IMG/VR virus record: IMGVR_UViG_3300045988_010074
Source of the DNA: a virus
Length of the DNA stretch: 5,740 nucleotides
Strand: one strand, 5' to 3'
Position 1 is the first letter of the stretch. Each line of letters starts with the position of its first letter. A program made the translations under genes and the position numbers. Below the pieces are notes generated by a model that did not search any database, was not told the DNA's origin, and was given only the letters and a program-made list of their open reading frames with translations. Shown piece after piece: positions 2,166-5,740 of the stretch.

Positions 2166-2648
2166 TTATTCCTCCTTTTTTGTTGATTCTGCTGTGTCTG
2201 GCGTTTTTACTGCAGCATTGTTTTTCGGCATAATGCCCATATTTTCAAGCCATTCCGGCTCTCCTGCGGTTGCTGCCCAGTTATCAAAGTTGTTGTTGAA
2301 CTTGTTTCTGATCTCCAGTGGCAGTGCATCGAACTTTTCTTTCTGTTCGTTCATCAGGTTCCGCCATTCGATGTAGTTTGCAGGCAGCTTGCTGGTGTCG
2401 ATGTACCAGCCGGGATTCGCCATGACGGTTGTGTCACCTGCTGCATACCTTGCTAGGATGCTCATGGGGTCGACTTCGTCCCTGTAACTTTGGATTTTTT
2501 CATACGTGTTGATCTCTCCCACCTGTTCAAGGTAGGGATTTCCGTTTTCATCGTACCGCTCTTTGTATTGCGGCTCCATAATATTTCCCGGATTGTTTGG
2601 TACTCTTTTCGGTTTTTCATCTTCATAGGGTGTAAAGATTTTAATCAT
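2166..2648 (-). CDS. VP3: Internal scaffolding protein VP3, 160 aa
   Basis: ATG at 2648 has GGAGGA upstream. The size, the position immediately upstream of VP1 (3-nt gap) and the C-terminal FDALPLEIRNKFNNNFDNW segment resemble the gokushovirus VP3 scaffold family (F..LP..IR..F.N pattern). This rests on recollection, not a search. Confidence 0.8.
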   Translation of the reverse strand: MIKIFTPYEDEKPKRVPNNPGNIMEPQYKERYDENGNPYLEQVGEINTYEKIQSYRDEVDPMSILARYAAGDTTVMANPGWYIDTSKLPANYIEWRNLMNEQKEKFDALPLEIRNKFNNNFDNWAATAGEPEWLENMGIMPKNNAAVKTPDTAESTKKEE

Positions 2649-2898
2649 TCTTTTTTTCCTCCATGGTTTTCTTGACCTGTTCGATGTTCCATTCCAGCTC
2701 CGGCATGCATGGCGTGATCAGGCCGGTTTCGGTGTCGTACTGCCCCAGATGATAGACCCGTTTATCCTCGCAGTCGCTTTTTTCCATCTCCTGAGTCATC
2801 CACTTGAAGGTCCGTTCCTTTACGATCGGATTAATTACCATGATGTTTCCGAAGGTACCTGCCAGCTCATCTTTGATTGCATAGAGTTCAAAAGTCAT
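2641..2898 (-). CDS. Hypothetical small acidic protein, 85 aa; possibly a conserved microvirus non-structural protein
   Basis: ATG at 2898 has GGAGGATAAC upstream. It overlaps the upstream gene by 11 nt and VP3 by 8 nt, which suggests translational coupling. The pattern LYAIKDELAGTF ... HLGQYDTETGLI recalls small accessory proteins I have seen in gokushovirus-like genomes (Y.I.D ... LG.YD..TG.I); this is unverified. Confidence 0.65.
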   Translation of the reverse strand: MTFELYAIKDELAGTFGNIMVINPIVKERTFKWMTQEMEKSDCEDKRVYHLGQYDTETGLITPCMPELEWNIEQVKKTMEEKKND

Positions 2899-3088
2899 TT
2901 TTGTTATCCTCCATAACCTCGTTTATGATATCGTTTTTGTGATATTTTATCCCATATTCGATTGCTTTTCGTATCGCTGCCGGCAGGCTGCATCCCAGCT
3001 CTTCTGCCAGATCATCAATTTCGGCTGCTGTGTCATACTTTAGTCTGACTGTCAGTGTGCAGCATGCCATGTTCTTGATGTTTTTCAC
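2888..3088 (-). CDS. Ribbon-helix-helix (CopG/Arc/MetJ-like) DNA-binding protein, 66 aa
   Basis: GTG start at 3088 has GAGGAGGA 8 nt upstream and overlaps the preceding stop (cTGTGA). An alternative ATG lies 6 codons in. TLTVRLKYDTAAEIDDLAEELGCSLPAAIRKAIEYGI reads as a beta-strand, helix A, a G-x-S turn and helix B, which is the canonical RHH layout. Confidence 0.6.
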   Translation of the reverse strand: MKNIKNMACCTLTVRLKYDTAAEIDDLAEELGCSLPAAIRKAIEYGIKYHKNDIINEVMEDNKNDF

Positions 3089-3204
3089 AGTCTGATTCCT
3101 CCTCTGCTGGGCTTCGGATTGACATTGATTTTTTTGGTTTTCTTTGCCGTGTTGGTGAAAACCTTCTTGTCGGTCTTCGGTTTTACAGTGCTGCGGTGTG
3201 CCAT
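3085..3204 (-). CDS. Very basic 39-aa peptide; candidate J / ORF8-like DNA-binding packaging protein
   Basis: Translated by hand as MAHRSTVKPKTDKKVFTNTAKKTKKINVNPKPSRGGIRL, with 12 K/R and 1 acidic residue. ATG at 3204 overlaps the upstream stop (TAATG), and AGGAGGA lies 7 nt upstream. It is below the size cutoff of the ORF track. Confidence 0.5.
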   Translation of the reverse strand: MAHRSTVKPKTDKKVFTNTAKKTKKINVNPKPSRGGIRL

Positions 3205-3311
3205 TACTCTTCCTCCTTATCGAGTTCCATTGCGTGGTAAATCTTATCCAGCATGTGCAGGATTTTCTTCAGGTGTCGGAAAATTGCGTTGATGTCCTGC
3301 AATGTTACCAT
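3204..3311 (-). CDS. Hypothetical 35-aa helical peptide; first ORF of the coupled structural-module chain
   Basis: Translated by hand as MVTLQDINAIFRHLKKILHMLDKIYHAMELDKEEE. ATG at 3311 is preceded by AAGGAGGT with an 8-nt spacer. The stop overlaps the next start. No homology was recognised. Confidence 0.4.
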   Translation of the reverse strand: MVTLQDINAIFRHLKKILHMLDKIYHAMELDKEEE

Positions 3312-3363
3312 TTTTTTCAACCTCCTTTCGGTAATTTTGTTTATATTTCTATTTTATCAAAAG

Positions 3364-3401
3364 AAAAAAAAAAAAAACAAGGTGGGTTTTTGTCCACCTT
3401 G
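3364..3401 (-). terminator. Rho-independent terminator for minus-strand transcripts
   Basis: On the minus strand, an 8-bp stem CAAGGTGG / CCACCTTG (3401..3394 and 3385..3378) with an 8-nt loop is followed directly by a run of 14 T (3377..3364). It begins 10 nt after the stop of the 56-aa ORF. Confidence 0.75.
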
Positions 3402-3411
3402 CTGATTTTAG

Positions 3412-3582
3412 TTATTTGTTTTCGTATTCTTTGAGTTTTTCACAGATTGCATCTGTCCATTCTTTATCGAATCCGAATTTTTTTCTGAACTTCTCGCCGT
3501 CTGTGCTTTTGTAGTGTCTTCTGTGCATTTCCTTTGCTAGTCTGGTGATCTCTTCTTCATACATCGTCATTTTAAACACCAT
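3412..3582 (-). CDS. Hypothetical 56-aa hydrophilic protein, the sole gene of the P2-to-terminator unit
   Basis: This is track ORF 3412..3606 trimmed to the ATG at 3582, because the GTG at 3606 lies inside the P2 promoter spacer. Sequence: MVFKMTMYEEEITRLAKEMHRRHYKSTDGEKFRKKFGFDKEWTDAICEKLKEYENK. The Shine-Dalgarno site is weak or ambiguous (AAAGGTG / GAAAGG), and in-frame ATGs at 3570 and 3564 are alternatives. Confidence 0.55.
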   Translation of the reverse strand: MVFKMTMYEEEITRLAKEMHRRHYKSTDGEKFRKKFGFDKEWTDAICEKLKEYENK

Positions 3583-3588
3583 CCTTTC

Positions 3589-3608
3589 TACACCTTTATT
3601 ATACACCT
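3589..3608 (-). promoter_or_regulatory. Tandem direct repeat AGGTGTA-TAATAA-AGGTGTA overlapping the -10 and start region of P2; candidate operator
   Basis: The minus strand reads AGGTGTA (3608..3602), TAATAA, AGGTGTA (3595..3589), with a 13-nt period. The same arrangement sits in the same register at P1. Confidence 0.4.
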
Positions 3609-3626
3609 AAAATATACACTTGTCAA
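3598..3626 (-). promoter_or_regulatory. Promoter P2: perfect sigma70/sigmaA consensus
   Basis: On the minus strand, TTGACA (3626..3621), a 17-nt spacer and TATAAT (3603..3598). It is intergenic, downstream of the VP4 stop and upstream of the 56-aa ORF. Confidence 0.7.
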
Positions 3627-3645: not shown

Positions 3646-3687
3646 GCTGTCCGTTCGGCCGTGGTCGGCCGACGAATAGAGGACAGC
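3646..3687. repeat. Compound inverted repeat (nested hairpin) in the VP4 to P2 intergenic region
   Basis: The outer 7-bp arms are GCTGTCC (3646..3652) and GGACAGC (3681..3687). The inner 6-bp arms are TCGGCC (3655..3660) and GGCCGA (3667..3672). The inner element is also a direct repeat, TCGGCCG-TGG-TCGGCCG. No U-tract follows on the coding strand. Confidence 0.5.
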
Positions 3688-3750: not shown

Positions 3751-4854
3751 TTAGACCTCGGTGCGTATGAGTTTGCTTATTCGTTCTTGCATTTTTTTGT
3801 CTTTCAGGTTATAATAATCCTGCATGGTCAGGCCGGTCTGCTTGAGCTGAGCAAATAGAGCGTCGTTCGCGATTCTTCGGCGCTCTCGTTTAATTGCTTT
3901 CAGTTCTTCGGATTCGGCTTTTTCTGTTATATCTTCAATTTTTTGCACTTCTTCATCTGTCAGCGGCTTTGCTCCATGGTCGATGTCGAATAGCTTGTCA
4001 AAGTATCTTGGCGGTTTACAGATTTTTCCGTTCTTTAGCTGTATTTGATCTTTTTCGTAGATTTCCGCTGCATGGTCATAGTAGTATTGTGCACCTATTG
4101 CCGGTTTTTTGCTCATAAGGCATTGTTCCGGCATAATGCCTAGTTCTTCATAAAATTTTTTGCCGTCCTTTCCGTAAATCTTTTTTGTTGTGTACCTTGC
4201 TGTGTATGCCATAGATCGCCATTCTGCTGGTGCTAGAATGACGTGTCCCATGCCCCAGATTTTTTCTAGCCATTCGCAGTTATAGTATGTGAATCCTCTT
4301 TCTTTCTTGTAAACTTTTAAATCTTCCTGTTTTATTGGTAGATCGTAGACAATTGCGTGATAGTGTGGTCTGTGTGTCTGGCTGCCGTATTCGCCAGCTT
4401 GGAAATACATTAGCTTTCCGGTTCCTTTTTCGTGATACTCTATGTATCGCCGCAGACGTTTCCAGAATTTTTGCATGTCCTCATAGCATAGACTCAAGTT
4501 TTCTGTTATTACTTCGCCTGTCAGTGTGTCCCATGTCGCTCGATATGGGACATTTTCGTTATCATAGGTGAGAGTTAGGAACCATGCGTTCTTGTGGTAT
4601 GGCAGCTCCATTTCCATTCTGTTCGCCCAGGATGCTGCGTTCGCCATTTTGCATCCAGGACAGTGCCCGCATGGTAGCAGCTGAGCATTCTGTTCTTTGA
4701 GCAGTTTTTTAACTCGCTGTTCGTTCCACTTCTGCTGTCTTTGATCAGCGTCAAACTCTAGCCTTTCGCCTGTTTTTGACAAGTATGCCTTCAGGCTGAC
4801 CACTCTTTCTTGTCTGTTGATGACGGTTCTAACCAATGGTCTCGTACATGGCAT
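3751..4854 (-). CDS. VP4: Replication initiation protein VP4 (HUH rolling-circle endonuclease), 367 aa
   Basis: Microvirus Rep motifs are present: N-terminal MPCTRPL, LPCGHCPGCKMANAASWANR, motif I WFLTLTYD, motif II GEYGSQTHRPHYHAIVY, motif III YTARYTTKK and MSKKPAIG. The start is set at the ATG at 4854, with AAGGAAGGAGG 12 nt upstream, rather than the track's TTG at 4926. Confidence 0.93.
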   Translation of the reverse strand: MPCTRPLVRTVINRQERVVSLKAYLSKTGERLEFDADQRQQKWNEQRVKKLLKEQNAQLLPCGHCPGCKMANAASWANRMEMELPYHKNAWFLTLTYDNENVPYRATWDTLTGEVITENLSLCYEDMQKFWKRLRRYIEYHEKGTGKLMYFQAGEYGSQTHRPHYHAIVYDLPIKQEDLKVYKKERGFTYYNCEWLEKIWGMGHVILAPAEWRSMAYTARYTTKKIYGKDGKKFYEELGIMPEQCLMSKKPAIGAQYYYDHAAEIYEKDQIQLKNGKICKPPRYFDKLFDIDHGAKPLTDEEVQKIEDITEKAESEELKAIKRERRRIANDALFAQLKQTGLTMQDYYNLKDKKMQERISKLIRTEV

Positions 4855-4878: not shown

Positions 4879-4919
4879 AATGGGCCCCAATAACCTTCTT
4901 GATGTTATTGGGGCCCATT
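4879..4919. repeat. Perfect 16-bp inverted repeat with a 9-nt loop, directly abutting the VP4 ribosome-binding site
   Basis: The arms are AATGGGCCCCAATAAC (4879..4894) and GTTATTGGGGCCCATT (4904..4919), with loop 4895..4903. It sits in the 140-nt untranslated spacer between the 55-aa ORF and VP4. No T-run follows on the coding strand. Confidence 0.65.
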
Positions 4920-4994: not shown

Positions 4995-5162
4995 TCATGC
5001 TGTTTTGTATCCTAGCGCTTCTGCGTATACATCAATTGCATCCCTTATGATATCGCTGTCGATGTATTTATCATACAGTTTGCATGTTTTGATGAACTCT
5101 AGTTCTTCGATCTGTTTTTGTGTTAGGTTGATGTTCATTCTTTTTGCCATTTGGCTTCTCAT
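4995..5162 (-). CDS. Hypothetical 55-aa protein, possibly ribbon-helix-helix-like; first gene downstream of P1
   Basis: Translated base by base as MRSQMAKRMNINLTQKQIEELEFIKTCKLYDKYIDSDIIRDAIDVYAEALGYKTA. ATG at 5162 has AGGAGG 7 nt upstream, and the stop is TGA at 4997..4995. A basic stretch plus a short strand (KRMNINL) followed by two amphipathic helices fits an RHH, but the inter-helix linker is longer than canonical. It is below the track size cutoff. Confidence 0.55.
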   Translation of the reverse strand: MRSQMAKRMNINLTQKQIEELEFIKTCKLYDKYIDSDIIRDAIDVYAEALGYKTA

Positions 5163-5180: not shown

Positions 5181-5214
5181 AGGTGTGCGATTCTTACACC
5201 CATATTATACACCT
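5181..5214 (-). promoter_or_regulatory. Tandem direct repeat AGGTGTA-TAATAT-GGGTGTA plus an inverted copy ACACCT over the -10/+1 region and leader of P1; candidate operator
   Basis: The minus strand reads AGGTGTA (5214..5208), TAATAT, GGGTGTA (5201..5195), AGAATCGC, ACACCT (5186..5181). The 13-nt period and the register relative to the -10 are identical to P2. Confidence 0.4.
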
Positions 5215-5232
5215 CCTCTTTGTGTCTGTCAA
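5204..5232 (-). promoter_or_regulatory. Promoter P1: perfect sigma70/sigmaA consensus
   Basis: On the minus strand, TTGACA (5232..5227), a 17-nt spacer and TATAAT (5209..5204). It starts immediately after the VP2 stop codon (5235..5233) and lies upstream of the 55-aa ORF and VP4. Confidence 0.7.
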
Positions 5233-5740
5233 TTACCATTTTCGCATTGCTTTTCCGAGACCGTACAGGGCTGCACCTGCTGCCTTCGTTTTCGCTTTGT
5301 TTCCAGCGTCTATGAGCTTTGTGCCTGCTTCTACGGTTGTCGGCGTTGTAGTCTTTCTGCCAGACTGTTCGTTGTTGTAGGTGTTGTTTGCGGTCTGTGC
5401 AATGTTTCCAACGGTTTTTGCGCTGCTTGAACCAATGTTTTGCATGATACTCTGCATGTAACTGGCTTCTTCCCAGTTTTTGGTTTCTTTTGCCGTGTTG
5501 ATCGTCTGCATGGCGTTCTGCAGAAATTGCGCTGTGTTGTTTCCGTAGTCATACATTGCTTGCATGGTGGCTGTGTGTGCTGCTGGAATTCCTGATGCTT
5601 GAGTGTGGCTAAAGGTTGTGTTTCCTACAGCTGCCTGGCCTCCGCTGCCTGAGCTTGCACCAAACCCGTTGTATGCTGCCAGTGCTGGGTTCAGACCTGC
5701 TTTCTTTAGGTCTTCTACCCCTCTCTGGTAGGCTGTGCTG
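5233..5740 (-). CDS. VP2: VP2 pilot protein, C-terminal portion (150 aa from 5685 down to the stop at 5235..5233); 5686..5740 duplicates 1..55
   Basis: Track ORF 5233..5565 extends upstream in frame with no stop to 5685; I translated 5566..5685 by hand as ALAAYNGFGASSGSGGQAAVGNTTFSHTQASGIPAAHTAT. The frame joins exactly with the codon ending at position 1, which restores ...KKAGLNP|ALAAY... Confidence 0.85.
   Translation of the reverse strand, partial: STAYQRGVEDLKKAGLNPALAAYNGFGASSGSGGQAAVGNTTFSHTQASGIPAAHTATMQAMYDYGNNTAQFLQNAMQTINTAKETKNWEEASYMQSIMQNIGSSSAKTVGNIAQTANNTYNNEQSGRKTTTPTTVEAGTKLIDAGNKAKTKAAGAALYGLGKAMRKW
5686..5740. repeat. Terminal direct repeat, right copy; marks circular closure
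   Basis: The 55 nt are identical to 1..55. Confidence 0.95.

Follow-up and report, generated by a model that had tools for sequence, protein, structure and literature searches.

A predicted ribbon-helix-helix protein encoded in a fixed slot of the late operon of gokushovirus-type microviruses

The 5740 nt stretch of DNA analysed here in full (the window; IMG/VR record IMGVR_UViG_3300045988_010074) is the genome of a gokushovirus-type microvirus, a single-stranded DNA phage, and carries within its late operon a 66-residue open reading frame (ORF), here called RHH66, which an initial annotation made from the letters alone had singled out as a ribbon-helix-helix (RHH) DNA-binding protein. That annotation had also recognised a microvirus, and matches to the Phage_F capsid, Chlamy_scaf, Phage_ORF5 and Rep families bear this out. 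The first 55 bp of the window recur as its last (1-55 = 5686-5740), and it therefore represents a circular genome of 5685 nt plus a terminal direct duplication. Every gene lies on the minus strand, in the transcription order VP1, VP2, a 55-residue ORF (ORF55), VP4/Rep, a further small ORF (ORF64), a 35-residue ORF, a 39-residue ORF, RHH66, VP5 and VP3. Its closest counterparts in GenBank are microviruses of the human and pig gut, with 75-81% identity over parts of the genome.

RHH66 is found, as had been proposed, at 2888-3088 on the minus strand, and its translation holds the strings that had drawn attention to it, TLTVRL, AAEIDDLAEELG (helix A), G-C-S and LPAAIRKAIEYGI (helix B). It is set into the structural operon by the overlapping stop and start codons previously described: its GTG start overlaps the TGA stop of the 39-residue gene (GTGA, 3088-3085), and its final 11 nt overlap the VP5 ATG at 2898. 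To describe it as embedded in noncoding DNA would be inaccurate, the upstream stretch encoding the 35- and 39-residue genes. A GGAGG ribosome-binding site, for which the RGG codons of the 39-residue gene double, lies 8 nt ahead of the GTG. We regard RHH66 as a real gene and no chance ORF because three comparisons agree. It has 24 homologues at 80-89% identity, every one on a contig of 5.5-5.8 kb; both GGAGG and GTG start are kept in all nine relatives that were fetched; and the pairwise ratio of nonsynonymous to synonymous divergence (dN/dS) in its frame is 0.23 (dN 0.054, dS 0.239), while the other two frames of the same DNA give dN/dS pairs of 0.093/0.069 and 0.081/0.095, i.e. dN similar to or greater than dS. 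This frame-specific pattern indicates purifying selection on the protein. In the same genomes dS is 0.24 within RHH66, 0.68 within VP5 and 0.42 within Rep, and the low value suggests either added constraint at the nucleotide level or recent recombination of the segment. As read from the sequence, translation of RHH66 is coupled, off the late (structural) transcript, to that of the 39-residue gene and VP5.

The fold assignment likewise draws on several lines. RHH66 matches the Pfam family RHH_1 over residues 12-47 at 21.3 bits, by a small margin above the gathering score of 20.5 (E 2.5e-4); RHH_1 is the sole Pfam family to exceed its curated cut-off, and is matched by 23 of the 27 members of the RHH66 family (best E 6.1e-5). 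The AlphaFold model of the monomer (mean predicted local distance difference test score, pLDDT, 76.6) leaves residues 7-17 non-helical, with a strand predicted at about residues 10-17, and continues with helix A (18-31), a G32-C33-S34 turn, helix B from residue 35 and a conserved acidic C-terminal helix. When this model was compared with the PDB by Foldseek, nearly all of the 50 matches listed were RHH proteins, Arc at the top and among the others CopG, TacA1, VapB, ORF56, AmrZ, NikA, MazE and AtaR, with probabilities of up to 0.97, TM-scores of up to 0.7 on the target and a root mean square deviation (rmsd) of 1.0-1.3 Å over 34-37 residues. Against viral models the top match was the RHH CopG-domain protein of Microvirus mar32. 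Sequence searches of the PDB with RHH66 and the profile of its close family returned only a designed repeat protein and TnsC at chance level; the more diverse profile of the slot family described below was the only one to reach an RHH structure, matching ORF56 of plasmid pRN1 (E 0.0085) across the strand and both helices. The domain spans only about 40 residues and each line is individually modest, and it is because they converge that we consider the assignment of RHH66 as an RHH protein of the CopG/Arc/MetJ type, drawn from sequence and model, to be solid. The textbook RHH signature first noted in this ORF has thus been upheld by Pfam, AlphaFold, Foldseek and the alignments to the mar32 protein, the Pfam and Foldseek searches being among the checks originally suggested.

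An exhaustive HMMER search of 1.84 billion representatives yielded only about four real RHH66 clusters; its other matches were repetitive long proteins aligned on the helix-turn-helix (HTH) part, and were judged spurious. The two most distant homologues (53% and 44% identity) occupy the identical slot, between the 39-residue gene and VP5, in divergent microviruses. We surveyed this slot in about 57 related gut gokushovirus genomes, collected by their shared conserved 39-residue gene. A slot gene of 60-74 residues that starts on the stop codon of the 39-residue gene is present in about 40 of them; in 12 the slot is empty, with a gap of only 12 nt, and in 4 it holds a hydrophobic peptide of 27-30 residues. 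This peptide (e.g. at 3699-3791 in L011, KX513873, and in L045 and L037) might be a membrane or lysis peptide. The proteins of 60-74 residues sort into seven or more subfamilies with no HMMER link between them, some matching RHH_1 and others RHH_3. They have a common architecture of basic N-terminus, alternating strand, helix A, G/x-S turn, helix B and third helix; the strand alternation [hydrophobic]-x-[VIL]-[RKNY]-[LIC] is kept in all subfamilies, and helix B carries R40 and an invariant G46. RHH66 is, on these comparisons, the local version of a widespread, dispensable and fast-diverging RHH family in a fixed slot. A tblastn search of 50,697 GenBank phage records with RHH66 gave no match, nor did two other slot subfamilies match these records; a third subfamily matched two microviruses, in both of which the gene is unannotated, and no slot RHH gene is annotated in the GenBank phage records.

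Table 1. Features of the window; all coordinates refer to the 5740 nt stretch.
Feature	Position	Strand	Remarks
VP1 capsid	2162->534	minus	Phage_F, E 2.7e-165
VP2, 324 residues	522->1 joined to 5685->5233	minus	single ORF only once the terminal duplicate is removed
Promoter P1	5232->5204	minus	TTGACA-17-TATAAT, 12/12 sigma-70-type
P1 region	5182..5232	minus	direct GTGTA at 5212 and 5199; inverted partner ACACC at 5186-5182
55-residue ORF (ORF55)	4995..5162	minus	first gene behind P1, ahead of Rep
VP4/Rep	3751..4854	minus	HUH rolling-circle initiator; likely start ATG at 4854
Promoter P2	3598..3626	minus	TTGACA-17-TATAAT, 12/12; ahead of ORF64
Small ORF (ORF64)	3412..3582	minus	between P2 and the terminator
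Intrinsic terminator	3362..3403	minus	10-bp stem (3403->3376) then T-run; closes the P2-ORF64 cassette
Candidate late promoter P3	3351..3359	minus	extended -10 TGaTAAAAT, directly past the terminator T-run
35-residue ORF	3204..3311	minus	first late-operon gene; strong AAAGGAGG ribosome-binding site
39-residue very basic protein	3085..3204	minus	phrog_10695 match
66-residue RHH gene (RHH66)	2888..3088	minus	GTG start at 3088, TGA stop at 2890-2888
VP5	2641..2898	minus	Phage_ORF5; start overlaps the RHH66 end
VP3 scaffold	2648->2166	minus	Chlamy_scaf

The surroundings of RHH66 are summarised in Table 1. The 39-residue protein immediately upstream is strongly basic (isoelectric point, pI, 11.8; net charge +11; C-terminus RGGIRL), matches phrog_10695 over its full length (E 5e-8) and is conserved in all relatives, nearly identical throughout, and unannotated in those from GenBank; it is probably a J/ORF8-like DNA-condensing (packaging) protein. 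Its ATG shares bases with the TAA stop of the 35-residue ORF, which is itself conserved across clades and gene-called in relatives. Expression of the late operon, with the 35-residue ORF first and RHH66 included, can be inferred to start from P3, where the motif TG-n-TAAAAT is kept in nearly all related genomes. The terminator just ahead of it is also kept in relatives, and P1 is conserved in all of them. ORF64 probably starts at the ATG at 3582, since the GTG at 3606 falls within P2; together P2, ORF64 and the terminator (3362-3626) make up a self-contained, moron-like cassette, which in the close relatives L002-L008 is absent, truncated or supplied with a different ORF. Two hairpins flank Rep on the minus strand. 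The first (4879-4919), just ahead of the Rep ribosome-binding site, is a perfect 16-bp stem (AATGGGCCCCAATAAC, loop ATCAAGAAG, GTTATTGGGGCCCATT) conserved in all clades with compensatory stem changes and a conserved loop (DNA fold z -4.9), and could serve as origin or nick site, or else attenuate the expression of Rep. The second (3646-3687), just past the Rep stop, is GC-rich (GCTGTCC...CGGCCG..CGGCCG...GGACAGC; fold z -4.7) and recurs in all relatives and, at 85% identity, in microviruses from GenBank that are more distant; it may act as a terminator or as a complementary-strand origin. No match came from Rfam or tRNA scans, and none of significance from PADLOC.

The promoters themselves carry repeats. 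The gene strand holds six copies of GTGTA, five of them within P1 (two) and P2 (three, all direct, at 3619, 3606 and 3593, i.e. spaced 13 nt apart), and GTGTA-N8-GTGTA pairs, which overlap the -10 element and transcription start, occur three times in the genome against 0.0065 expected. Each ORF55 homologue detected (about 50 genomes) has a GTGTA pair 47-53 nt upstream of it, with one exception, a genome in which the second copy coincides with the annotated start codon. We considered these repeats as an operator for RHH66 and rejected them, as they are conserved in genomes that do not carry it. The idea that P1 and P2 are sites for the 66-residue protein is consequently not sustained. Being present without RHH66 and tracking ORF55, the repeats probably belong, as an operator or iteron set, with the 55-residue protein, or else with a host factor.

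ORF55 lies as originally described, first behind P1 and ahead of Rep, and has 98 homologous clusters, all on microvirus-sized contigs. It had been put forward as a second, weaker RHH candidate, and this view survives in part. In its favour is the family alignment, with an invariant strand KRxNxNLT, a variable helix and loop, and then SDIIRDAI, to which correspond the strand KRMNINLT and helix B SDIIRDAIDVYA of the copy in the window. RHH_1 is matched below threshold in 7 of 24 diverse homologues (best E 0.0015), and the ORF55 profile finds the RHH protein ORF56 and the chain TTHA0139 in the PDB weakly (E 0.2-0.7). The window copy itself does not match Pfam, its AlphaFold model is of low confidence (pLDDT 67.8), and Foldseek returned no match to this model. 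Taken together we consider ORF55 probably RHH-like. Its alignment is what would be expected of an RHH protein with a conserved DNA target, and parallels the invariance of GTGTA; of the two proteins ORF55 is more likely than RHH66 to be the regulator of P1 and P2. The 66- and 55-residue families show no relation by hhalign, and are therefore not recent duplicates. In seven of the 98 clusters (P0093, P0119, P0122-P0125 and P0130), the window copy not among them, the ORF55 protein ends in D(D)[LI]PF, carried on C-terminal extensions of varied length and resembling the conserved C-terminal hexapeptide of SSB, the protein that binds single-stranded DNA. The SSB hexapeptide DDDIPF docks host replication proteins (PMC5872125). 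By this resemblance the tail hints that the ORF55 family may recruit, or compete for, SSB partners.

What RHH66 itself might do has to be judged from its fold, its slot and its distribution. We lean towards a dimeric DNA-binding regulator made together with the late proteins. Translated by coupling from the late transcript, it would accumulate alongside the capsid proteins; two chains would pair their N-terminal strands (about residues 10-17, with T11, T13, R15 and K17 facing outward) as a two-stranded sheet, this sheet would read a short repeated DNA site, and binding would feed back on phage transcription or replication late in infection. We infer this mechanism from the general behaviour of RHH proteins.

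Several observations weigh against such a regulator. The slot gene is dispensable, 12 relatives having an empty slot, and the GTGTA repeats at P1 and P2 are kept where the 66-residue gene is missing. Within the survey no repeat specific to gene-carrying genomes was found, and a subfamily-specific operator, sought at the late promoter, was not found there; the late-promoter region is nearly identical across subfamilies whose strand residues differ, so that protein and site do not covary. RHH66 is acidic (pI 4.96, net charge -3), unlike stand-alone repressors such as CopG and Arc, which are basic. On the structural side, the model is of a monomer only, the dimer being no part of the prediction, and the Foldseek E-values are weak (0.04-3), because the domain is tiny (about 40 aligned residues) and the model monomeric.

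The late leader offers a further perspective on the slot. In all 16 genomes that lack a slot RHH gene, a leader of about 100 nt separates the late promoter from the first ribosome-binding site, while the leader is short in all genomes that have a slot gene and whose late-promoter region is intact. The long leader, present in L010 (MG945797), L011 (KX513873) and 14 other loci, spans TGGTAAAAT to the 35-residue ORF. It contains a stem that covaries between genomes (e.g. CCAGAG/CTCTGG and CCGGCGCC/GGCGCCGG) and an invariant CTGCCTCC with GCCTCC, able to pair with the ribosome-binding site of the 35-residue ORF; it does not match Rfam. It is possibly a cis-regulatory RNA of the late operon, and the slot gene and the long leader could be alternative throttles on that operon. 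Equally to be set against a regulatory role of RHH66, this anticorrelation of gene and leader may stem from a single ancestral event. The genomes without the slot gene make up two or more groups in the Rep tree, yet resemble one another in VP5 sequence.

Other roles can be proposed for an RHH protein in this position. RHH66 could be an orphan antitoxin-like or anti-defence protein, which would neutralise a host protein, such as the toxin in a toxin-antitoxin system of the abortive-infection type, or repress a promoter of the host. Its RHH domain followed by a conserved acidic C-terminal helix of 20 residues (pI 4.96 for the protein) would fit, as would the presence of the antitoxins TacA1, VapB, MazE and AtaR among the Foldseek matches, the phage proteins named 'Antitoxin' among those from the viral library, and a weak NCBIfam match to a RelB-like antitoxin (E 0.058); a variable, dispensable slot with fast divergence is moreover typical of accessory and counter-defence genes. 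However no toxin gene is adjacent, the neighbours being the 39-residue gene and VP5, PADLOC gives no significant match, and the antitoxin matches are no better than those to repressors. The pattern of the C-terminal helix is also conserved across subfamilies, rather than hypervariable as expected of an arms race, and we judge this explanation unlikely.

Slightly lower in our estimation, and also unlikely, is an accessory role in replication or packaging, in which RHH66, in the manner of the auxiliary RHH proteins of conjugative relaxases, would bind double-stranded DNA near the Rep nick site, or handle the 39-residue protein, and so aid the switch to single-strand synthesis and packaging. The location is suggestive, between a J-like basic protein and VP5 with translational coupling to both, and the acidic RHH66 has as its neighbour a protein with a net charge of +11. 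Rep, like the relaxases, belongs to the HUH enzymes, the structural and Pfam matches include NikA and further RHH proteins of relaxosomes, and conserved candidate-origin hairpins lie near Rep. Yet genomes lacking the RHH gene conserve these hairpins and the 39-residue gene just as well, so that RHH66 cannot be essential to that machinery, and no binding site was found.

It is very unlikely that the protein is not RHH at all, i.e. a small HTH protein or some other helical one in which the RHH signature is mimicked by the G-x-S turn. Matches to IF2_N below threshold occur in 20 of the 27 family members (best E 6.5e-5), several HTH families also match below threshold over the helix-turn-helix part, and the designed helical repeat protein matches that part too. 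Nevertheless only RHH_1 passes its curated cut-off, the structural neighbours are almost all RHH proteins, and the alignments to ORF56 and to the mar32 protein include the strand. The 17 residues ahead of helix A, moreover, are predicted to be non-helical and alternate in a conserved, strand-like pattern, so that the third helix required by an HTH has no place.

Temperate phages make use of small RHH repressors, Arc and Mnt among them, and strand residues that vary between slot subfamilies, as immunity types do, might recall an immunity or lysogeny repressor maintaining a prophage or carrier state. This role, raised by the initial annotation, finds no support and is the most improbable of all: the gene sits in the late structural operon and not in an early or divergent control region, no ORF of the genome matches an integrase family in profile scans (the lack of an integrase had been seen from the outset), there is no convincing dif, only two overlapping 3-mismatch matches inside coding sequence, and a search of 185,579 species-representative bacterial and archaeal genomes (GTDB) found no relatives of RHH66 or Rep, the Rep scan detecting close relatives only. 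Some gokushoviruses do lysogenise without an integrase, via host XerCD and a phage dif, and episomal persistence is possible (PMC7062461).

With a late-made DNA-binding regulator still the role that we favour for RHH66, its gene and ORF55 can tentatively be joined in one circuit, a scheme that is possible but in which we place little confidence. ORF55, as an RHH-like factor whose invariant strand reads DNA, would bind the GTGTA iterons at the early promoters, and the slot RHH protein, made with the capsid proteins, would hold back either the late operon or Rep, its place being taken in lineages without it by a leader RNA sequestering the ribosome-binding site; in some lineages an ORF55 with a DDLPF tail could in addition recruit host replication proteins. 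If this were true, microviruses would not be merely constitutive lytic machines but would have timed and tunable expression, possibly the basis of the carrier states of other gokushoviruses.

Few small regulators of phages and plasmids are commoner than RHH proteins. Microviruses are usually portrayed as lacking transcription factors of their own, with the strengths of promoters and terminators setting expression in the phiX174 model, and we found no paper linking RHH proteins with Microviridae or gokushoviruses. The kind of regulator is thus already known, while the slot family and the pairing of ORF55 with GTGTA are new as descriptive results. That an RHH gene is conserved in the late operon suggests control, by at least one abundant gut lineage, of itself or of its host, and the near-universal RHH-like gene ahead of Rep, with its repeat-bearing promoter, points the same way. 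In about two thirds of this virus group a fixed slot holds an unannotated gene for a predicted DNA-binding protein, a gene which annotation pipelines have missed because it diverges fast. The findings are relevant to the timing of gokushovirus replication against packaging, and to persistence in hosts.

RHH66 can be compared with several known systems. The type II antitoxins with an RHH domain at the N-terminus (RelB, ParD, TacA, VapB) resemble it in having a C-terminal extension after that domain and in being acidic, but are encoded in bicistronic toxin-antitoxin operons, whereas RHH66 has no adjacent toxin gene. Arc of phage P22 (PDB 1par, 1bdv; about 53 residues) is likewise a phage RHH protein with a basic N-terminal arm ahead of the strand. 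It comes from a 40-kb temperate tailed phage, where it works on Pant, a promoter in the immunity I region; identity to RHH66 is only about 21%, and the genome studied here has no lysogeny module. ORF56 of the Sulfolobus plasmid pRN1 (PDB 2k9i, 3ft7), labelled a plasmid copy control protein in its PDB entry and encoded upstream of the plasmid replication protein, is the best match of the slot-family profile to a solved structure, residues 10-52 aligning on 10-52; unlike RHH66 it is archaeal, and the statistics of the match given above are weak.

The only other microvirus RHH protein found in our searches is that of Microvirus mar32 (UniProt A0A8F5ML28; MZ089778, 3607-3750), which aligns with RHH66 free of gaps (BLASTP E 5e-6, 33% identity) and with the RHH66 family profile at an hhalign probability of 93.6%. 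It differs in being basic (pI 9.3) and only 47 residues long, with no C-terminal extension, and its gene stands alone between Rep and a small-gene cluster, not in the slot between the 39-residue gene and VP5. In GenBank it is a 'hypothetical protein', the RHH label coming from UniProt automatic annotation only, and the announcement of the mar32 genome does not discuss it (PMC8830333).

A further parallel is CopG of plasmid pMV158 (PDB 1b01, 1ea4), like RHH66 a small RHH protein of a rolling-circle replicon with an HUH Rep. CopG is the solved structure that best fits the RHH66 core (32% identity, rmsd 1.2-1.3 Å over 34-37 residues), and the two have in common the gap-free pattern L-T-[IV]-x-L ... 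A-x-E-[LM]-G-x-S. RHH66 is acidic where CopG is basic, and is 21 residues longer, with the extra acidic C-terminal helix. Its gene is also placed differently, within the structural (late) operon and, following transcription, some 660 nt downstream of where Rep stops, past the ORF64 cassette and terminator. In pMV158 copG and repB are co-transcribed from one promoter (PMC2724298), and in the microvirus this layout is matched not by RHH66 but by P1, ORF55 and Rep.

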